Shown: positions 28,871 to 38,672, counted from the first letter of the stretch. The stretch: DNA of 51,958 nt from Rickettsiales bacterium (GCA_002689325.1 NZFP01000038.1:1-51958), one strand, 5' to 3'. Numbers and translations are program-made. The notes: generated by a model from the sequence alone, not told the origin.

Positions 28871-30202
28871 ATGGATGAATTAAATAAATTTTCGAAAAGA
28901 TTTAAAAGGTATGCTGATTTAGGTACTTCAGCAGGATCTCTTGCTATAAATTTCCTTGGATCTAAAATTTTTAATTCAAAAGATGGAAAAAATGCAGAAG
29001 ATTTATCAAGAATTTTAGGGAATCTTAAAGGACCTATAATGAAGATTGCTCAACTATTATCAACAGTTCCAGATCTTCTCCCAGAAGAATATACTAAGGA
29101 ACTTACAAAACTTCAATCAAGTGCCCCTCCTATGGGATGGAATTTTGTTAAAAGAAGAATGAAAAATGAATTAGGTGATGAATGGTTAAATTTCTTTGAC
29201 TCATTTGAAAAGGAACCTTTTGCTGCAGCATCACTTGGCCAAGTTCACAAAGCGTTATTTAACGGAAATGAGGTTGTTTGTAAATTACAGTATCCTGATA
29301 TGTTGTCTATAGTTGAGGCTGATATCGGGCAGTTAAAATTATTATTTTCAATTTATAAAAAAATAGATCCAACTATTGACACATCAGAGATACAGAAAGA
29401 AATTTCATCAAGAGTCCGAGAGGAACTTGATTATTTTTTAGAACAAAAACATATGGAACTTTTTAACTTCATTTTTAAAAAAAATAAAAAGATTCATATC
29501 CCATATGTTTTAAATGAGATTTCTACTAAAAGACTTCTGACTATGAACTATCTTGAAGGAAAAAAGTTACTTGAGTTCAAAAAAGAATCAAAAAATAATA
29601 AAAAAGAGCTAGCCAAAAATATGTTTGTTGCTTGGTATTATCCTTTTTATAAATATGGTGTTATTCATGGTGATCCACACCTAGGAAATTATTCTGCAAA
29701 TAAGAATTATGAGATAAATTTACTTGATTTTGGTTGTATAAGAATTTTTAAGCCATCTTTTGTTGAAGGAGTCATAAATTTATATCATGCAATTATGCAT
29801 AATGATCAGGATTTAGCAGTAAATGCCTATGAAAGCTGGGGCTTCGAAAATATAAATAAAAAATTAATCGAAATACTAAATATTTGGGCAAAATTTTTGT
29901 ATTCTCCACTTCTAGAAAATAAGGTTAGAAAAATGCAAGAAACTAATTCGACAGCTTATGGAGCAGAAGCAGCAAATAAAGTACATCGTGAATTAAAAAA
30001 AATTGGCGGAGTTAAGCCTCCGAGAGAATTTGTTTTTATGGATAGAGCGGCTATCGGCCTTGGTTCAGTTTTTTTACATCTTGATGCAGAGTTAAATTGG
30101 TACAAAATATTTAATGAACTCATTGATGGTTTCACAGTCAAACAAATTAAACAATGTCAAAAAATAGCTTTAAAAACATCTAAATTGGAAGAAAACTACT
30201 AA
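28871..30202 (+). CDS. AarF/ABC1/UbiB (COQ8-like) atypical kinase
   Basis: KG..MKIAQ, PFAAASLGQVH, K.QYP, EELDY, DPH.GN and LLDFG. Confidence 0.92.
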   Translation: MDELNKFSKRFKRYADLGTSAGSLAINFLGSKIFNSKDGKNAEDLSRILGNLKGPIMKIAQLLSTVPDLLPEEYTKELTKLQSSAPPMGWNFVKRRMKNELGDEWLNFFDSFEKEPFAAASLGQVHKALFNGNEVVCKLQYPDMLSIVEADIGQLKLLFSIYKKIDPTIDTSEIQKEISSRVREELDYFLEQKHMELFNFIFKKNKKIHIPYVLNEISTKRLLTMNYLEGKKLLEFKKESKNNKKELAKNMFVAWYYPFYKYGVIHGDPHLGNYSANKNYEINLLDFGCIRIFKPSFVEGVINLYHAIMHNDQDLAVNAYESWGFENINKKLIEILNIWAKFLYSPLLENKVRKMQETNSTAYGAEAANKVHRELKKIGGVKPPREFVFMDRAAIGLGSVFLHLDAELNWYKIFNELIDGFTVKQIKQCQKIALKTSKLEENY

Positions 30203-30767
30203 CCTTTTGTTGGAAATTTTCAGCTGTAGACAAAAGTTTATCTAATTCAGCCATAGTTTTTGATAAATCTTCAGTATCATCTGACAACCAAGTTTTAAAT
30301 GTAATAGAATAGATAAAAAATAAAAAATTTTTTTTCAAAAAATCAAAAGCATAATTATTATATGAATTTGATAACTCAAGAAAAAAATCCATAGTATTCA
30401 TTACATTTTTAGTAATAATTGAGATCAACAATGGTTTATTTTTAGAAACATCTAATATTTTTACGAGTGAACCTTTAAAACCTTCCATTTCATCAAACCT
30501 CATCATTATTAGTTCAAAAAGAATGTCTTTTTTTGAGGAATCCTTAAAATCATCGATTCTTAATTTTGATTCAATATTTTTGTCAATCATTCTTGAAAAT
30601 TTATCAACAATAGAATTTTTACATTTAAAGAAAACTTTTAGGTCGTTAATTGGAATCTTTTCTTTAGTTGAAAGTTTTTCTAAAGAAAATTCCTCCCACC
30701 CAATGTCATTAATTAGATCAAACCCTTTCTTTATATATTTATTTTCTGTTTCTGTTGAATTATTCAT
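30180..30767 (-). CDS. TetR-fold protein, COQ9-like C-terminus
   Basis: N-terminal GW...S helix-turn-helix-like segment; LFELIMMRFD; WLSDDTEDLSKTMAELD. Confidence 0.65.
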   Translation of the reverse strand: MNNSTETENKYIKKGFDLINDIGWEEFSLEKLSTKEKIPINDLKVFFKCKNSIVDKFSRMIDKNIESKLRIDDFKDSSKKDILFELIMMRFDEMEGFKGSLVKILDVSKNKPLLISIITKNVMNTMDFFLELSNSYNNYAFDFLKKNFLFFIYSITFKTWLSDDTEDLSKTMAELDKLLSTAENFQQKVSSFLPI

Positions 30768-30841
30768 TGATTTTCAGGTTGTTTTTAAAATATATATATA
30801 TATTCTTTAAGTTGTAAATAAATAAATGGAGTATTAAAAAT

Positions 30842-31234
30842 ATGATAAATAGATCTTTTATAATCACATTGCTTGGATTTTTCTTAATTTCCTTAAGTGC
30901 AAATGCTGGTGATGCTGAAAAAGGGAAAAAAGTTTTTAAGAAATGTGCAGCTTGTCACAACGTTGCTAGCGGTGCAAAGCACAAGACTGGTCCAAATCTT
31001 TGGAATATTGTTGGGGCTAAAGCCGGGATCCAAGACGGTTATAAATATTCTGATTGGTTAAAGGGCGCTGGCATTGAGTGGAACGATGAGAACTTAGCAG
31101 CTTGGGTTGGTAAAAAAAAAGAAAAAACAGCAAAATTTGGTAAGGATGTAAAGAAAAGCAAGATGATATTTGCTGGTCTTAGAAAAAAAGAACAAGTTGC
31201 AGATCTTATTGCTTATTTAAAGACACTCAAGTAA
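30842..31234 (+). CDS. Periplasmic class I cytochrome c (c2-like)
   Basis: Signal peptide, GDAEKG, CAACH, GPNL and KM.F axial Met; GGAG ribosome-binding site. Confidence 0.95.
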   Translation: MINRSFIITLLGFFLISLSANAGDAEKGKKVFKKCAACHNVASGAKHKTGPNLWNIVGAKAGIQDGYKYSDWLKGAGIEWNDENLAAWVGKKKEKTAKFGKDVKKSKMIFAGLRKKEQVADLIAYLKTLK

Positions 31235-31244
31235 CTTTTTATTA

Positions 31245-31757
31245 ATGAAAATTGAAGAAATTGAAAGTTTCATAGGAAAGGTTCCTGATTTTCCCAAACC
31301 TGGTATCCTTTTCTATGACATTTCAACTCTTATTTATAACAATGAAGCTTTTGCCTCCTCATTAGAAAAGTTTGAAGAATTATTTGATGAATATAAGTTT
31401 GATACCATAGCAGCAATAGATGCTAGGGGCTTCATATTTGGATCAGCTTTAGCTCACAAACTTAAACTTGGAATGATTATGATTAGAAAAAAAAATAAAT
31501 TACCAGGAAATAAAATTTCGTTTGAATATGATTTAGAATATGGAAAAGATACTCTTGAGATAAATATAAATGTTAAAAATAAAAAATTCTTACTTATAGA
31601 TGATCTTTTAGCAACAGGTGGAACAGCAGATGCCGCGGTAAAATTAATTGAAAAAGCTGGTGGAAAAGTTTCTTGCTTTGGATCATTGATAGAACTATCT
31701 TTTTTAAATGGGCGCGAAAAACTTTCTGTCCCTGTTCAAACGCTTATTAAGTATTAA
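31245..31757 (+). CDS. apt: Adenine phosphoribosyltransferase
   Basis: PDFPKPGI.F.DI, ARGFIFG, LEYG.D and IDDLLATGGT. Confidence 0.96.
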   Translation: MKIEEIESFIGKVPDFPKPGILFYDISTLIYNNEAFASSLEKFEELFDEYKFDTIAAIDARGFIFGSALAHKLKLGMIMIRKKNKLPGNKISFEYDLEYGKDTLEININVKNKKFLLIDDLLATGGTADAAVKLIEKAGGKVSCFGSLIELSFLNGREKLSVPVQTLIKY

Positions 31758-31759
31758 TT

Positions 31760-32470
31760 ATGACAAGAGCACACAAACTTTTTCTAAAGTGGTTACTACA
31801 ATTTAATTTAATTTTTTTTTTCATCTTTTTTGCATTTGACCAAGGCTTAATTTTAAAGATCCTTTCGTCCGACAAAAGCTACATTACAAGCTTAATCTCA
31901 TTAATTTTCATTCTTGTTAGTGGACACTGTGCATTCTTTACGTTTAAGGTTTCAAAAGAACTTAATAAAGCTCATGTTATAAAAAAAAGCCTGCTAAATG
32001 AAAATGTTAAATTAAAAATTATTGATCAAAGCCTTATTCTTACATCGAAAGGCGAGATCGCTGGTGGTATTGTGTGCGATTATTTCAAAGATTTAATTGG
32101 ATTAAAAAAAAGCGGAGCATCCTCTCATGTCCAAATTCTTGATACCTATGTTAAAAAAGCCAATGGGTTTTTTGAGTTTGGGTGGTTTTGTTCAGACATA
32201 ATGCTTAAATTAGGCTTAATAGGTACCGTAATTGGTTTTATAATTATGCTAAGTTCTCTAGCTGATATTACCACTTTTGATGTAACTCTTCTTCAGGGAG
32301 TTCTCACGACAATGGGAAGTGGTATGGGTGTGGCACTTTATACAACTTTATCCGCACTTGTTACAGGGGTTTTAATTGCAATTCAATATTATAATTTAGA
32401 ATCTGGTTGTGAAGAACTTTTTTCTGTACTCAATCAAATTTCAGAAGTAAGTATCGACAAGAGTATGTGA
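31760..32470 (+). CDS. MotA/TolQ/ExbB proton-channel family protein
   Basis: Four hydrophobic segments; LGLIGTVIGF and GMGVALYTTL signature helices. Confidence 0.88.
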   Translation: MTRAHKLFLKWLLQFNLIFFFIFFAFDQGLILKILSSDKSYITSLISLIFILVSGHCAFFTFKVSKELNKAHVIKKSLLNENVKLKIIDQSLILTSKGEIAGGIVCDYFKDLIGLKKSGASSHVQILDTYVKKANGFFEFGWFCSDIMLKLGLIGTVIGFIIMLSSLADITTFDVTLLQGVLTTMGSGMGVALYTTLSALVTGVLIAIQYYNLESGCEELFSVLNQISEVSIDKSM

Positions 32471-32471
32471 T

Positions 32472-33068
32472 ATGTCTTATTCTGGAAGAAGATTAAGGGC
32501 TGACCCTTTCACAGACTTATTATTCAATGTATTGTTATCTTTTACATTATTAATGTTTCTTGCTATAATTTTTATGAATCCAATTCCCAAAACTGGTGTT
32601 ATTAATCCAAAGGCAGAATATATAATAACAGTAAGTTGGGCTGATAATAATCCTGATGATATTGATACTTATGTTCAAAACCCAACAGGAGGGCTGGTTT
32701 GGTTTAGAGGTAAAGAATCAGAATTTGTTCATTTAGATCGAGATGACAGAGGTTTGCTTAATGACACTATTATGGTAAATGGCGAAAAAATACAAAATCC
32801 CCTTAATCAAGAAGTAGTAACATTACGTGCTGTCGTTCCCGGCGAATATATTGTGAATGTTCATTACTATGCAACAAAAACAAATCAACCTATCGATGTA
32901 AATGTTAAAGTTGAAAAGGTCAACCCTCAGCTTGAAGTGATTTATTATGGAACAATTAATTTAGAAAAAAAAGGTGTAGAAAAAACTGCAACAAGATTTA
33001 ATATAACACAAGACGGAATAGTTAATGTGACAGGTAACTTATTCAAAAAACTAGTACCGGAGAACTAA
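32472..33068 (+). CDS. Single-pass ExbD/MotB-like partner with acidic YfaP/DUF2135-like periplasmic domain
   Basis: PFTDLLF helix with an intramembrane Asp; W....DDIDTYVQNP.G, LDRDDRG and PGEYIVNVHYY. Confidence 0.65.
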   Translation: MSYSGRRLRADPFTDLLFNVLLSFTLLMFLAIIFMNPIPKTGVINPKAEYIITVSWADNNPDDIDTYVQNPTGGLVWFRGKESEFVHLDRDDRGLLNDTIMVNGEKIQNPLNQEVVTLRAVVPGEYIVNVHYYATKTNQPIDVNVKVEKVNPQLEVIYYGTINLEKKGVEKTATRFNITQDGIVNVTGNLFKKLVPEN

Positions 33069-33073
33069 GTCAA

Positions 33074-33595
33074 ATGAGCACAGAAGTATTTTTTATTATT
33101 ATATGTTATGTTTTTATTGGTTTTTTACTTATATTATTTAACCTAAGAACAACTTATCACTGGATTATAAAATCCTCACTAATAATTATAACTTTAGTTT
33201 TTTATATATTTACCTACAAATCTTTCACCAATTTAGTTGGTTGGCCCACCAGTGCTTCACTTCCAGAAAGGTTTAGGCTTATATCAGCTCAGATATATGA
33301 ACCAAATACATTACTTAATATTGAGGGAGCAATTTACCTTTGGGTAACTAATATGGATGATCTCGCTGGGCTAGGAGTACCAAGATCATTTAAAATAAAT
33401 TACAACAAAGAATTACATGAAAAAATTTCGAAATCATTAGTTAATCTCAAAAATGGCGTACCCCAAATGGGCGAGAATTTGGATGATGAAAAAAAAGGAA
33501 TAATTTCAAGTCTTTTAAAAAAAGAAAAAATTACTACTGTTAGTACAACATTAAACTTTTTTGATATGCCTAACCAACTATTACCTGAAAAATAA
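33074..33595 (+). CDS. Uncharacterised membrane protein
   Basis: Two N-terminal membrane segments, then a soluble domain with GWP, IYLW and PRSF...Y...LH. Confidence 0.75.
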   Translation: MSTEVFFIIICYVFIGFLLILFNLRTTYHWIIKSSLIIITLVFYIFTYKSFTNLVGWPTSASLPERFRLISAQIYEPNTLLNIEGAIYLWVTNMDDLAGLGVPRSFKINYNKELHEKISKSLVNLKNGVPQMGENLDDEKKGIISSLLKKEKITTVSTTLNFFDMPNQLLPEK

Positions 33596-34287
33596 TGCGT
33601 TTATTAGTATTAATTTTTTGCATAATTTCTTGTTCTGAAAATTCATCTCAATACTTCCCCTTAGATAAAATTAAAAAATGGTCCTACAGCGTAGAGATTA
33701 TCCCTGAGGTTGAGAATAAAGCTTTATATAAAAAGACACATCTTTCAATGGGCGAAAAAAAAGTATCACTAAATGATAAAAAGAAAAACCTGTTTCCTAT
33801 TTTAAGGGAAAATGGAACAACACTTTTTTATGAATTCCTTGATGATGGTATTTACAGAGTTGGAAAAAAGTTTCTTAAAGAAAAGAAAATAACAGCCGAA
33901 ACCAAAAGAATGGTTTTACCAGTCCCACTTACACTTGATAAAACCTGGAATGTAGACAGCGAAACTTATTTGATTTTAAGAAAATATCCATATTATGATT
34001 ATAGAGCCACAACCAATTTTAAGCTCAACTATAAAGTTGCTTCAATGAAAGAAACGGTCAATACACCCTCTGGGACTTTTAAGGATTGTATTCTAATTAT
34101 TGGTAACGGAAAAACAAACTTCATTGGAAACAATGAAATAGGATCTATTGGTATAAAGATTTATTCTAAAGAATGGTATTCAAGAACAATTGGGTTAATA
34201 AAGATGGAAAGAATAGAAGAAACTGATACAGATTTATTTGGAACAACAAAAATGGTTCAACTCCTAGAAAGTTACCAAAAATTTTAA
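33595..34287 (+). CDS. Uncharacterised lipoprotein, paralog of 5163..5870
   Basis: Lipobox-like IISC; TPSGTFKDC and EWYSRTIGLIK; TAATG coupling to the upstream gene. Confidence 0.75.
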   Translation: MRLLVLIFCIISCSENSSQYFPLDKIKKWSYSVEIIPEVENKALYKKTHLSMGEKKVSLNDKKKNLFPILRENGTTLFYEFLDDGIYRVGKKFLKEKKITAETKRMVLPVPLTLDKTWNVDSETYLILRKYPYYDYRATTNFKLNYKVASMKETVNTPSGTFKDCILIIGNGKTNFIGNNEIGSIGIKIYSKEWYSRTIGLIKMERIEETDTDLFGTTKMVQLLESYQKF

Positions 34288-35298
34288 ATGAATTATTTAA
34301 ATATATTAATATCTTCTGTAGTGGTTTTTTTTTTGCTACACCTTGGTAAATTCATTTTTATACCTTTTTTTTTTTCATTATTTTTTTACGTTATTATCAA
34401 TTCAATTTCAAATGATTTAGTTAATGTTTCAAATAAAATAAACATAAAAATTAATGAGTTTACATCCCATTTTATACTATTCTCAATTTTTATTTTTTTT
34501 GTTTATTTTTTTTTTAAAATTTTAAAAACAAATATCAACAATGTGATTCAAAATATTGATGTTTACCAAAACAATTTAAATCAACTTTCATTTTATTTTT
34601 CAAAAACTCCGGTAAACAATTTCTTCAATGAATCAATGATTTTAGAAAACTTAAATTTAATGAATATTTTTAACTATTTATTAAACATGGTAACAAACTT
34701 TGCAGGAAATTTTTCAATGATAATTTTTTTGCTAATATTTTTAGTAATTGAAAAAAAATATTTAAAGCTAAAAATTGCTAAAATAATAACAAACAAGAGT
34801 AAACTCAAAGTTTTCTCAAATATTAATAGTGACATATATAATTATTTTAGAATAAAAGCTTTGACTAGTTTTTTAACAGGAATTTTGACCTTTGTTATTT
34901 TATTTTTTTTTAATAGTGACTTAGCTATTGCTTTTGGGATTCTTTCTTTTTTTCTCAATTTTATCCCTTACATAGGGTCTTTAATTTCTATATTGTTACC
35001 AGTTACTTTCTCTGTAGTAGACAATTATAATTTCATGTACTCAATTATAATCTTCGCTTTACTTTTTCTAAACCATTTATTGATTGGAAATTTTCTGGAA
35101 AATAAATTAATGAGTAAAGCGCTTAATATAAGCCCAATAGTTCTTTTAATTTTCTTATCAATCATGGGAAAACTTTGGGGAATCTCTGGAATGTTTTTGA
35201 GTGTACCAATTATAGTTGTTTTAATTATCATACTTAATAATTTCAAACATACCAAGAATATTGCTATACTATTATCTGAAAAAGGAAATCTGAAATAA
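34288..35298 (+). CDS. AI-2E family transporter
   Basis: Polytopic protein; FFLNFIPYIGS, GNFLE.K and LWGISGMFLSVP. Confidence 0.9.
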   Translation: MNYLNILISSVVVFFLLHLGKFIFIPFFFSLFFYVIINSISNDLVNVSNKINIKINEFTSHFILFSIFIFFVYFFFKILKTNINNVIQNIDVYQNNLNQLSFYFSKTPVNNFFNESMILENLNLMNIFNYLLNMVTNFAGNFSMIIFLLIFLVIEKKYLKLKIAKIITNKSKLKVFSNINSDIYNYFRIKALTSFLTGILTFVILFFFNSDLAIAFGILSFFLNFIPYIGSLISILLPVTFSVVDNYNFMYSIIIFALLFLNHLLIGNFLENKLMSKALNISPIVLLIFLSIMGKLWGISGMFLSVPIIVVLIIILNNFKHTKNIAILLSEKGNLK

Positions 35299-35303
35299 AA
35301 ACT

Positions 35304-36401
35304 TTAAAAATTCGTTTTTAATCCTCTATCCATTGATAAAATTAAACCAAAACCTATAAAGTAAGTAATCATAGAAGAACCACCGTATGAAACTAAAGGA
35401 AGGGGGAGTCCAACAACTGGAAGAAGCCCAATAACCATTGACATATTAATCATTGCTGCAAAAAAGAAATTAGAAATCAAACCATACGCAAGAACTCTAT
35501 TAAAAAAATCACGATTAAATTTATTTGCTATGTTATAGGTAGTTGAAGTAATAATAACAATCAGCCCAACTACTGAAAGTGTTCCTAGAAAACCAAATTC
35601 TTCTCCCAACATTGAAAAAATAAAATCTGTATGTTTCTCTGGTAAAAAATCAAGATGAGATTGAGTTCCTTTCATCCAACCTTTACCAAAGACGCCACCT
35701 GAGCCAATTGCAATTTGAGATTGTATAATATGATAACCAGAGCCAAGGGGATCATTTTCAGGGTTAAAAAGTGTTAAAATTCTTTGTTTTTGATAATTCT
35801 TTAACAAAGACCACAAATATGGTGCAATCATTAACATTAAAAAGCCTATAGAAGCAAAGAATTTCCAACTTAAGCCAGCTATAAAAAAAATTAAAAAACA
35901 AATGAAAAGTATAATAGCTGCAGTACCCAAATCAGGTTGTCTTAAAATTAGTCCAACAGGTAAAAGCACAATAAGTATTGGTAAAACTAAAAAAAAATAG
36001 TCACGAGTGTCTTTAATTTTCTTTTCATCAAAAAACTTAGCTAATGACAAAATAATAAAAATTTTCATAAATTCTGAGGGTTGAAAATAAAAACCTGATA
36101 TTTCAATCCACCTTCTTGAACCCTTTCCTATATGACCATAAAAAGATGCCCAAATAAGTAAAATTAAAAAAATTAAATAAAAGTAGAATGCATTCTTTTT
36201 CCAAAACTCCATATCTATGAGAGAAACTATAATCATAATTATTAAACCAAAAAAAACTTTGCTTATATGATTAAAAAAAATATCCATTTCCATTGCTGAT
36301 GTAGCACTATAAATCATTACAATTCCAACAAATGATAAAAAGCTCACCAAAAAGAAATAAAGCCAATTTAAATTCTTTAATTTAATAAAAATTTCATTCA
36401 T
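35304..36401 (-). CDS. rodA: Rod shape-determining SEDS protein RodA
   Basis: G.RRWI, QPSEFMK, QPDLGT, PEKHTDFIF and LPLVSYGGSS; follows mrdA. Confidence 0.96.
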   Translation of the reverse strand: MNEIFIKLKNLNWLYFFLVSFLSFVGIVMIYSATSAMEMDIFFNHISKVFFGLIIMIIVSLIDMEFWKKNAFYFYLIFLILLIWASFYGHIGKGSRRWIEISGFYFQPSEFMKIFIILSLAKFFDEKKIKDTRDYFFLVLPILIVLLPVGLILRQPDLGTAAIILFICFLIFFIAGLSWKFFASIGFLMLMIAPYLWSLLKNYQKQRILTLFNPENDPLGSGYHIIQSQIAIGSGGVFGKGWMKGTQSHLDFLPEKHTDFIFSMLGEEFGFLGTLSVVGLIVIITSTTYNIANKFNRDFFNRVLAYGLISNFFFAAMINMSMVIGLLPVVGLPLPLVSYGGSSMITYFIGFGLILSMDRGLKTNF

Positions 36402-38182
36402 GAGACTTTAAAGAAATTTTTTAGAGAGAGTTTAATTATTTTTTTTGCAATTGGTGCAGCCACCTTTGAACCACTACCCATGTGCTCCGCAATTACTGTT
36501 ATTGCATATTTTGGTTTATTAAAAGGAGCAAAACCAGTAAATATTGAATGATCTCTGAGTTTATAAATAATTTCTTCGTTTTTTAAAACACCTAACTCTC
36601 TCTCCTCTTTTGAAATTTTTCTCACTTGAGATGTACCTGTTTTACCAACCAATTTATATTTTCCAGCTATTCTAGAGGAATATGCTGTACCTTCATATTC
36701 ATTCACAACCGAATACATAGCATTCCTAATAAAGGTTAAATTTTTTTTTGAAATCTCTATATTTTCAAAAATATCTTCGGGACTATATGAAATTTTTGGC
36801 TTAATTTTTTTTCCACTTGCTAAAATTGCTGTCATGTTCGTTATTTGTAATGGTGTGGACAACATAAATCCTTGACCAATTACTGTGTTGAGTGTCTCTC
36901 CTTTTTGCCATCTTTCACCTTTATTGTTTACCTTCCACTTTCTATTGGGCATTATACCAATTAGCTCGTTTGGAAAATCTATCTTTGTTGAGACACCTAG
37001 AGAGAATTTTTTAGAAAATTTAGACAATGGATCGATTTTTATTTGTTTGGCAAGGTTATAAAAATAGCAATCACAAGATTTTTTAATTGCTCCTTTTAAA
37101 TTGACAAAGCCATGTCCTTCTTCTTTCCAACAATGAAATTTTCTATTACCAAATTCAATGAAACCCTCACAAAAATATTCTGTCTTAGGATCAAAGCCTA
37201 ATTTTTCTAATACATATAAAGCAGTAATTAGTTTAAATGTTGAACCAGGAGAGTATAAGCCTGCAATACATCTGTTTAGTAGCGGTTTTGATTCGTTACT
37301 GATAAGCGATTTCCATTTTTCTGCAGTTACTCCGTTACTGAACTCATTACTATCAAATGAAGGTGTTGAAAGAAGACAGTTAACTCCTCCGTTTTCACAA
37401 TCAATCATAACAACAGCACCATTTATCTCTTTCATCAAAGAATAAGCATATTCTTGAATTGGAGCGATAAGATTAGTTTTAAGGTTTTCTCCAGGAATAG
37501 CTATTTTTTTGTTTAATTCTTTTTTGATTTTTCCCTTTGAATTAGTTTCAAGTTTAATCCAACCATCTTTTCCTAATAATTTTTTATCAAATAGTTTCTC
37601 GATTCCTGAAATACCAAACTTTAAATTATTCAGCTTTTTATTTTTTAAATCTTTTCTATAGCCAACATATCCAATAACGTGAGAAAAAATAAAGTTGTTT
37701 TTATAAGATCTTGTTCTTTCTTTATTAATAATTAAAAAAGGAAAATTATTTGAAATTAGTTCAAAAGCCTCAAGTTGATTCCATCCTAGGTTCTTTTTCA
37801 TAATTATGAAATCAGATAAATCTTTATTATTTATATTCTCCTTTAAATCTACTAAATCTTTTTCAGAAAATTCAACTACATTACGCAAACTAGAAATATA
37901 TTTATTTATAAGGTTTTCTTTTTCTCTAAAAATATTAAGCTGAAAATCTGGTCTGTTTAAAGCAATGGGGTTATTATAAAGGTCATAAATTATGCCTCTT
38001 TGGGGGTAAAGAATTTTTACTTTTATTCTATTTAAATCAGATAATTTTCCATACTTTAATTTATCAAGAATTTGAAGATGATATAATTTCCCAAAAACAA
38101 TTAAAGTAAATAATGTTTTTAATCCTCCCAAAACAAAAGATCTTTTACGAAGTAACTGAGAATTATCTTTTCTATCAATCAT
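36398..38182 (-). CDS. mrdA: Penicillin-binding protein 2
   Basis: PGSTFK (SxxK), SCD.YFY and GKTGTSQ; located in the mre operon. Confidence 0.96.
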   Translation of the reverse strand: MIDRKDNSQLLRKRSFVLGGLKTLFTLIVFGKLYHLQILDKLKYGKLSDLNRIKVKILYPQRGIIYDLYNNPIALNRPDFQLNIFREKENLINKYISSLRNVVEFSEKDLVDLKENINNKDLSDFIIMKKNLGWNQLEAFELISNNFPFLIINKERTRSYKNNFIFSHVIGYVGYRKDLKNKKLNNLKFGISGIEKLFDKKLLGKDGWIKLETNSKGKIKKELNKKIAIPGENLKTNLIAPIQEYAYSLMKEINGAVVMIDCENGGVNCLLSTPSFDSNEFSNGVTAEKWKSLISNESKPLLNRCIAGLYSPGSTFKLITALYVLEKLGFDPKTEYFCEGFIEFGNRKFHCWKEEGHGFVNLKGAIKKSCDCYFYNLAKQIKIDPLSKFSKKFSLGVSTKIDFPNELIGIMPNRKWKVNNKGERWQKGETLNTVIGQGFMLSTPLQITNMTAILASGKKIKPKISYSPEDIFENIEISKKNLTFIRNAMYSVVNEYEGTAYSSRIAGKYKLVGKTGTSQVRKISKEERELGVLKNEEIIYKLRDHSIFTGFAPFNKPKYAITVIAEHMGSGSKVAAPIAKKIIKLSLKNFFKVS

Positions 38183-38672
38183 TTAGTCTTCCAAACATCA
38201 CACTCAATTTTTGTATTAAAGAATAAAAAAGCGGAAACAAAATTATAGATAAAAGAACGCTTATAGAATTTTTAGAGATTGAATAAGAGAAATCTTTTAA
38301 TAAATAATTAATTAAAAAAAGACTCAAAAAATAAAAAAGTAATATAATAGCAAACTTAATCCAAATATTATTTAAATAATTTGTGGCTATAAAACCAATA
38401 TTATTGTTATTCAAATGATACATTGTTAAAAAAAAGAAAGGAGTCACTCCAACAATTCCATCCTTGAGGAAATCGTAGAACAACCCGAAAAAAAGAAGCC
38501 ATAAAGGTCTAAATCTTTCACTATCATGCTGAATCCAACAATAAATAACTGTAAATGTCATTAAAGGTTTTACTAATTCATTGTCATAATAATAAATAGG
38601 GGCTGTTTCTAAATATATAAAAAATATTATAAAAAAAAATGGAAACAGCTTAGTAAAAATTTTATTGATCAT
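38175..38672 (-). CDS. mreD: Rod shape-determining protein MreD
   Basis: Hydrophobic 165-aa protein with GL..D...G..G, between mreC and mrdA. Confidence 0.82.
   Translation of the reverse strand: MINKIFTKLFPFFFIIFFIYLETAPIYYYDNELVKPLMTFTVIYCWIQHDSERFRPLWLLFFGLFYDFLKDGIVGVTPFFFLTMYHLNNNNIGFIATNYLNNIWIKFAIILLFYFLSLFLINYLLKDFSYSISKNSISVLLSIILFPLFYSLIQKLSVMFGRLND

Follow-up and report, generated by a model that had tools for sequence, protein, structure and literature searches.

Positions 31760–33595 of a 51,958-nucleotide (nt) stretch of DNA from a Rickettsiales bacterium (GCA_002689325.1, NZFP01000038.1:1-51958; hereafter the window) encode a three-gene module, g1-g2-g3. The gene order is kept in 91 of 93 loci from two bacterial classes, and the flanking genes vary. 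The module combines a divergent MotA/ExbB-family protein (g1), a candidate partner with an Asp in its membrane helix and an atypical β-sandwich domain (g2), and a two-helix membrane protein without known family (g3). It is read here, at a probability of about 0.5, as a branch of the 5:2 ion-motor class that has not been described before and works on the cell envelope. A first-pass annotation, made from the window's sequence alone, had described five + strand open reading frames (ORFs; g1 to g5, 31760–35298) directly after apt as an ion-motor operon. The five coupled genes, their spacing (gaps of 1 nt and 5 nt, a 1-nt overlap and 0 nt) and the motifs it quoted were all found in the sequence.

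Proteins of the g1-g2-g3 module

g1 (31760–32470, + strand, 236 aa) matches the Pfam family MotA_ExbB (PF01618) over residues 151–219 with 32.4 bits against a cut-off of 22.9, and its relatives in other loci reach 42 bits. The MotA/TolQ/ExbB signature claimed in the first-pass annotation is borne out by this match, and g1 is, by its sequence, a divergent MotA/ExbB-family protein. The helices GW..D..LKLGL.GT..GF..ML and M..GMG.AL.TTL are invariant in an alignment of 25 g1 relatives, and G155-T156 and T195-T196 are present in 25/25 sequences. The GT and TT threonines are presumably the equivalents of the TolQ/ExbB threonines that face the partner Asp. Further conserved positions lie toward the N-terminus (W11, D38, S40, and H56), and residues ~65–140, between helices 2 and 3, are poorly conserved. 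Four membrane helices are predicted, with both protein ends in the cytoplasm. Among sequences of solved structures only PomA and MotA were matched (E 0.3–1.5), and a PHROGs search with g1 returned nothing.

g2 (32472–33068, + strand) has a single membrane helix with Asp15, then a β-sandwich, and no Pfam family scores above its cut-off. Its N-terminus contains DPFTDLLFN, and the acidic motifs cited earlier are present. Asp15 is kept in 70 of 72 representatives that share at most about 50% identity with one another. In hhalign it falls in register with the Asp of the same genome's ExbD/TolR (TPFVDVML) and MotB (TFADMAT) proteins, the position that the first-pass annotation had given it. The window's g2 has no match to ExbD/TolR (PF02472), and 3 of the 72 members match weakly through the helix (best E 0.005). 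An OmpA-like domain was sought in g2 and gave no Pfam match at E up to 1, and no TonB family matched g2 either.

An AlphaFold2 (AF2) model of g2 has a mean predicted local distance difference test (pLDDT) score of 72, a helix at residues 12–35 and strands at residues 49–188 that form an all-β sandwich. Exhaustive structure comparison of residues 47–195 ranked TerD first (2qz7_B; Z 9.5, root-mean-square deviation (rmsd) 4.0, 131 residues) and second (2kxt; Z 9.1, rmsd 3.7, 132 residues). The next fold had a Z of 6.4, and several lower matches are Ca2+-binding sandwiches. Foldseek with the g2 model placed TerD entries in its top rows (E about 1e-3). Because the link to TerD fails at the sequence level, as detailed below, the modelled outer domain appears TerD-like in fold only. 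The window's own genome has 0 TerD matches.

The name YfaP/DUF2135-like, proposed earlier for this domain, was not upheld, and the fold search points to TerD. DUF2135 scores 15.6 bits against g2 (cut-off 22) and matches only 2 of the 72 members, and PPC scores 14.4 bits (cut-off 25.9). YfaP is used as a name for 2 of 120 listed g2 homologues, by one source. Nothing was found among solved-structure sequences using g2 or its profile, PADLOC has no family matching g2, g3, g4, or g5, and the one PHROGs match to g2 is a family of unknown function. Residues W56, D63, D65, D91, G94, and E114 are invariant, and D92, N112, R119, and N129 are nearly so; D63, D65, D91, D92, N112, E114, and N129 make up a conserved acidic cluster. 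This acidic pattern is typical of a cation site, and g2 probably binds Ca2+.

g3 (33074–33595, + strand) is built of two membrane helices, a GWPT turn, a small domain in which one helix accompanies three strands, a disordered linker, and the conserved C-terminal motif F-x-D-x-P-x-x-L-x-P-E/D-K. An alignment of 27 sequences has 17 invariant columns. The AF2 model (pLDDT 73) contains two helices, and its fold search was filled with helical-hairpin matches (best Z 7.5), which do not probe the soluble domain. No match to g3 was found in Pfam, NCBIfam, PADLOC, or PHROGs. The protein was also examined for TonB/TolA features: no such family matched in Pfam or NCBIfam, and its sequence has neither a Pro-rich stretch nor a Ser/His motif in helix 1.

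Operon types, distribution and phage versions

Loci were collected by a pattern scan using one genome per species. The scan gave 80 loci: 36 from close relatives, 2 from other alphaproteobacteria and 42 from gammaproteobacterial or unclassified genomes. By tblastn, g1-g2-g3 are co-linear in 80/80 of these loci where the contig allowed (the L036 contig ends within g2). Between classes, g2 is 61–68% identical, and g1 and g3 are only 28–41% identical. An independent sample of 401 genomes from the phylum gave 16 matched places, of which 13 were analysed, and profile searches recovered the full trio in 11 of the 13. The gene-neighbourhood check suggested in the first-pass annotation thus found the trio recurring in alphaproteobacteria, gammaproteobacteria and phages.

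The 93 loci fall into several architectures. The order g1-g2-g3-g4 occurs in 41, and in 1 more with an over-extended ORF call (L110). YkuD-DUF302-g1-g2-g3-vWA/FHA is complete in 32 loci and partial in 11. The remaining loci have a bare g1-g2-g3 (5), g1-g2 at a contig end (1), or g2 alone (2). The conserved unit is g1-g2-g3, because apt and g5 occur only in close relatives and the trio order is kept across loci; in one operon type, out of three or more, g4 regularly joins as the fourth gene. The five-gene operon of the first-pass annotation therefore holds for its first three genes; the AI-2E transporter gene (g5) lies outside the system, and the lipoprotein gene (g4) belongs to it in one operon type only.

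g4 (33595–34287, + strand), the fourth member in operon type I only, encodes a DUF3108-like lipoprotein. It matches DUF3108_like (PF21347) with 29.9 bits (cut-off 27), and a lipobox-like IISC can be read at Cys13. Homologues of g4 directly follow g3 in 42 loci. These include homologues in a gammaproteobacterial genome (L109; E 3.7e-31, and 31.7 bits to PF21347) and in family f46 (L110–L113; E 1e-14 to 1e-18). Among solved structures g4 has a weak match to the putative lipoprotein 4fvs (E 0.028), and a PHROGs search returned nothing.

g5 (34288–35298, + strand) abuts g4 with a gap of 0 and matches the AI-2E transporter family (PF01594) with 134.4 bits (cut-off 34.3). The upstream neighbour apt (31245–31757, + strand) encodes adenine phosphoribosyltransferase (Pfam Pribosyltran, 56 bits). 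Together apt and the AI-2E gene flank the core in 35 of the 36 close-relative loci that reach that far, and both are missing in 44 more distant loci (L037–L080). They are lineage-specific neighbours outside the conserved module. A link through apt to the phosphoribosyltransferases of Ter-like systems was considered and rejected, as apt synteny is confined to close relatives.

Type II operons start with a small secreted YkuD-type L,D-transpeptidase followed by a DUF302 protein. The best NCBIfam match of the YkuD protein is LdtF/DpaA-like and far below the cut-off. These operons end with a protein in which a signal peptide and a vWA domain are combined with a membrane helix and an FHA domain. 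One gammaproteobacterial genome (G274) carries both operon types on a single contig (C4), with YkuD-DUF302-trio-vWA/FHA (L108) and trio-DUF3108-like (L109) about 40 kb apart. In family f46, the trio and its g4 homologue lie directly downstream of a PqqB-like hydrolase of metallo-β-lactamase fold, and a GAF-PAS sigma-54 activator is also found upstream. The PqqB-like gene of L111 passes the PqqB equivalog cut-off (311.8 vs 245 bits), and a PqqC-family gene lies nearby in L112. In family f11, and in loci L114–L118, whose g2 lacks the Asp, the genes after the trio encode either a Metallophos phosphoesterase plus a Ser/Thr kinase-Usp protein or LuxR-TPR regulators. In several loci the trio adjoins sigma-54 activators or two-component genes. 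The theme of these contexts is envelope and signalling proteins, and no single pathway or function is indicated.

Among protein clusters built at 50% identity, 2,073 matched a g2 profile at E up to 1e-3, and 435 of these did so at E up to 1e-30. Within the window's order of small-genome bacteria, the module is present in 39/42 genomes, 9/9 high-quality genomes and 13/14 genera, and a housekeeping role is therefore argued there. Across the phylum, relatives of g2 occur in 15/401 genomes and are sporadic, concentrated in a few families. A protein atlas also listed look-alike clusters labelled Uroviricota for g2 and g3, and archaeal 'YfaP' clusters (score 0.83); these are leads only.

The INPHARED phage genomes were searched by tblastn, and g2 homologues with 33–38% identity were found in 29 Rhizobium/Sinorhizobium phage records. 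Two phage loci were examined. In both, the gene before the g2 homologue encodes 113 or 148 aa with only the MotA_ExbB core (27.3 and 22.6 bits). The gene after g2 aligned with the g3 profile in hhalign at 84% probability in one phage (E 8e-6, 107 columns) and at 14% in the other (L090). The phage trio lies among early and DNA-metabolism genes. Since these phages retain only the 113–148-aa core of g1, the variable cytoplasmic part of g1 seems dispensable, which would point to output on the periplasmic side. A PHROGs search with the phage proteins returned nothing. A viral-contig scan using a single g2 protein found no relative, and the phage matches come solely from the INPHARED set. The two most divergent g2 matches in bacterial genomes are L120 (G287), with a trypsin-like peptidase and an RNA ligase, and L119 (G164), with a DUF1353 protein. 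Both probably represent prophage copies of the phage-type module. Their g1 is weak in L120 (E 2.7e-4) and was not detected in L119.

Proposed mechanism and competing explanations

In the proposed mechanism, g1 would form an outer ring and g2 would supply a central pore helix with the ion-binding Asp. The periplasmic β-sandwich of g2, TerD-like in fold, acidic and probably Ca2+-binding, would replace the ExbD-type or peptidoglycan-binding domain of other motors. Ion flow through g1 and g2, assembled at a 5:2 ratio, would turn or pull this domain. With its two helices, small periplasmic domain and C-terminal peptide, g3 may act as an adaptor that couples the motor to a target. In this organism the target could be the lipoprotein g4, and in many gammaproteobacteria it could be the set of L,D-transpeptidase, DUF302 protein and vWA-membrane helix-FHA protein. 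The first-pass annotation proposed g3 as a transducer and g4 as its target; both roles are guesses. Most likely, the job of the module is to work on, or to sense, the cell envelope (peptidoglycan and the outer-membrane layer). This fits accessory genes that encode envelope proteins, namely the lipoprotein, the L,D-transpeptidase and the periplasmic vWA domain.

There is precedent for such a partner. As described in PMC12204202, TolQ-like motors without tolR have vWA proteins as partners, with an Asp-bearing 'transpore helix', and further such systems are said to await discovery. This precedent of non-ExbD partners with an Asp pore helix counts in favour of the motor reading. What stands of the earlier idea of a motor is that g1 and g2 look like a channel of the MotA/ExbB type with an Asp-helix partner that is atypical; the accompanying term 'separate class' was too strong in light of the vWA partners reported in that paper. 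We regard the system as a new branch within a known kind of motor, not as a new class. As in the motors of PMC12204202, no tolR or exbD lies beside the MotA/TolQ-like gene, and the Asp helix is fused to an unrelated periplasmic domain; unlike in those motors, the periplasmic domain of g2 is a β-sandwich and not a vWA domain, and a constant third gene, g3, is present. The main text of PMC12204202 mentions no β-sandwich partner. The available part of PMC12505986 treats non-flagellar homologues as widely diverse and in general terms, and does not describe the g1-g3 family.

The module shares with ExbB-ExbD as well as with TolQ-TolR the Pfam family of g1, a partner with a single N-terminal helix and a conserved Asp, a third membrane protein encoded next, and a likely periplasmic output. 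It differs in that g1 is predicted to have 4 helices, as MotA does, and not 3; g2 has no ExbD-family periplasmic domain and g3 is no relative of TonB or TolA. With MotA-MotB, PomA-PomB and ZorA-ZorB it shares the 4-helix A subunit (predicted for g1) and the Asp helix of the B subunit, and the best NCBIfam and PDB sequence matches of g1, which are weak, are MotP, PomA, MotA, and ZorA. Unlike the B subunits, g2 has neither an OmpA-like peptidoglycan-binding domain nor a plug, and flagellar genes are not nearby. At 236 aa, g1 lacks the long tail of ZorA, and its cytoplasmic loop is poorly conserved. TerD is the best structural match to g2, and the acidic conserved cluster and the vWA and phospho-signalling genes near some loci are further points of likeness. 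Sequence and profile similarity to TerD are missing, and g2 is membrane-anchored, whereas TerD proteins are soluble and cytoplasmic. Genes for TerB, TerC, or TelA were not observed in the scanned loci.

The same 1.3-Mb genome encodes six MotA/ExbB-family genes. They belong to a TolQ-TolR set; an ExbB set that includes two ExbD genes; a pair resembling MotA-MotB, with MotB_plug and OmpA domains; a MotA-like gene on another contig, whose partner is a coiled-coil vWA protein with SFLDIM in its N-terminal helix, a pair of the kind that PMC12204202 describes; a MotA-like gene with an Asp-helix/coiled-coil/OmpA protein, preceded by a Lys/Glu-rich repeat protein; and the g1-g2 pair. Apart from g1-g2, the three motor loci outside Ton/Tol are on contigs C10 (L084, 1114–2943), C23 (L086, 83–3155), and C1 (L082, 186–2148).

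Several observations weigh against the motor reading. g1 scores low against every named subfamily, and its matches to MotP, PomA, and ZorA have E of 0.002 or worse. The hhalign matches that set the helix register are short and not significant, with a probability of 4% for ExbD/TolR (16 helix columns only) and 0.4% for MotB. Five loci (L114–L118) and 2 of the 72 representatives form a g2 clade with Val at the Asp position. The TerD fold match is limited by the moderate confidence of the g2 model (pLDDT 72), TerD (PF02342) has no Pfam match in the window's g2 or in any of the 72 members, and hhalign of the g2 family with 16 TerD sequences gave a probability of 0.4%. Counts of Lys plus Arg settle the topology of neither g2 nor g3. 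Accessory genes vary widely by lineage: some encode envelope proteins, a PqqB-like hydrolase, or kinases and phosphatases, and others are phage early genes. In the literature on motors combined with the domain families of the module, no paper or experiment on g1-g2-g3 was found.

In the Asp-less clade, a Lys lies four residues past the Val in all five loci (FDPLGVMLFK) and in P0122, one of the two representatives. L114–L118 are from large-genome alphaproteobacteria, and related Asp-less proteins occur in metagenomes (P0122, P0141, and P0186). P0186 (411 aa) is an apparent one-chain fusion of a g1-like part (MotA_ExbB, 160–230) and a g2-like part (270–410). It may be an artefact of gene calling or a frameshift, because its N-terminal part resembles mistranslated sequence.

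The fold match raises the alternative of a signalling or sensing device with a logic like that of the Ter stress systems. The TerD-like domain of g2 would bind Ca2+ or a periplasmic ligand, gate ion flow through g1 and signal to cytoplasmic phospho-signalling proteins (FHA, Ser/Thr kinase, phosphatase, sigma-54 regulators), and no mechanical work would be done. Ter systems pair TerD with vWA, kinase and phosphatase proteins, and comparable genes accompany the trio in places: the vWA-membrane helix-FHA protein with its signal peptide ends type II operons, Metallophos and kinase-Usp genes lie beside the trio in f11, and sigma-54 activator or two-component genes adjoin several loci. PMC7824862 likewise counts TerD, as the ligand-binding part, and a vWA protein among Ter components, and proposes that Ter components borne by phages act in superinfection exclusion. 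Against the sensor reading, which we judge rather doubtful, sequence homology to TerD was tested and none was found, vWA, FHA and kinase genes are all missing from the operon in the window, and the signalling genes are no constant partners of the trio. A Zorya-like system for phage defence or superinfection exclusion, in which a membrane motor senses envelope perturbation at phage entry, is in our view unlikely. The weak ZorA matches, the patchy distribution in the phylum (15/401 genomes), the phage-like context of L120 and the g2 homologues of the 29 phage records, with a mini-g1 adjacent in the two loci examined, are in keeping with it. Yet the ZorA scores of 12.5 (cut-off 100) and 13.5 bits are far below cut-offs, no PADLOC family matches g2–g5, and no nuclease, helicase, or other effector gene lies beside the trio in the window or the scanned neighbours. 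In the small-genome order, moreover, the module holds a fixed syntenic site (39/42 genomes), unlike a mobile defence island.

A Ton/Tol-like energiser, in which g3 would play the part of TonB/TolA and reach an outer-membrane transporter to drive nutrient uptake, would account for the layout of a motor gene, an Asp-helix gene and a gene for a third, partly periplasmic membrane protein. It is considered very unlikely, as g3 has no TonB/TolA family match, has two membrane helices and not one, and lacks both the Pro-rich spacer and the helix-1 Ser/His motif. No TonB-dependent receptor adjoins the trio in the scanned loci, and the genome already has its ExbB-ExbD-ExbD and TolQ-TolR sets. Finally, the genes could be mere neighbours packed together by genome compactness, and g2 would then be unrelated, a periplasmic protein anchored in the membrane. 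Genes are closely spaced all along the 1.3-Mb genome, and apt and the AI-2E gene are equally tightly placed yet are not conserved partners. Against this explanation, which we hold to be extremely improbable, stand the g1-g2-g3 order across two classes and phages and the differing flanking genes among those loci. Findings that would speak for an ordinary motor or for chance linkage were not obtained: g2 is no ordinary ExbD/TolR, g3 is no TonB homolog, the Asp is conserved, and the genes co-occur.

The preferred reading of an envelope-acting motor can be extended, tentatively and with less than even odds, to an undescribed 5:2 motor whose axle carries a Ca2+-binding, TerD-like sandwich. Such a motor might power a new trans-envelope process, for example the tethering or remodelling of the outer-membrane lipoprotein-peptidoglycan layer, and might be kept as indispensable in a 1.3-Mb marine genome. 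Rhizobiophages might have captured a stripped-down form to manipulate the host envelope or membrane potential.

Genomic setting and significance

The source genome is a 1.3-Mb draft, 88.8% complete, and the window has a G+C content of ~28%. The assemblies most closely related to this genome come from marine single cells and metagenomes and carry the labels Alphaproteobacteria, Rickettsiales, or Pelagibacteraceae. The upstream flank encodes an ABC1/UbiB-like kinase, a 195-aa ORF without family, cytochrome c and apt. The 195-aa ORF (30180–30767, − strand), which lies between the kinase and cytochrome c genes, matched nothing in Pfam at E up to 0.001. The downstream flank has rodA, a PBP2-type transpeptidase gene and mreD on the opposite strand (35304–38672, − strand). 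This peptidoglycan-elongation cluster converges on the operon end, and in other lineages the g1–g3 module is paired with an L,D-transpeptidase; that the two lie close together here may be coincidence. No TonB, flagellar, nuclease, or helicase families were found among the twelve window proteins scanned (28871–38672), in agreement with the earlier observation that TonB/TolA, flagellar, nuclease and helicase genes are not nearby.

Marine RNA-library contigs identical to the window over parts of g1–g4 bridge the apt-g1, g1-g2, and g2-g3 junctions, and parts of the 31760–35298 stretch are without cover in the RNA runs. The contigs across junctions are a weak hint of transcription, because RNA libraries can contain DNA. 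Contig depth spikes thousands-fold in all four marine RNA runs at 34443–34583, an AT-rich segment inside the AI-2E gene, which is most likely low-complexity sequence common to many organisms.

To our knowledge, ion-driven 5:2 motors are the sole means of delivering energy to the periplasm and outer membrane in Gram-negative bacteria. With each new type of motor partner a further process came to light (flagella, Ton, Tol, gliding, and Zorya). The family is large, with 2,073 g2 clusters, and no Pfam, NCBIfam, PADLOC, or annotated PHROG family covers g2 or g3. The Val-for-Asp clade, with its Lys four residues on, offers a natural test of ion coupling, and the minimal three-gene form in cultivable Rhizobium phages provides a tractable system. 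The module is also near-universal in an abundant order of small-genome marine alphaproteobacteria.

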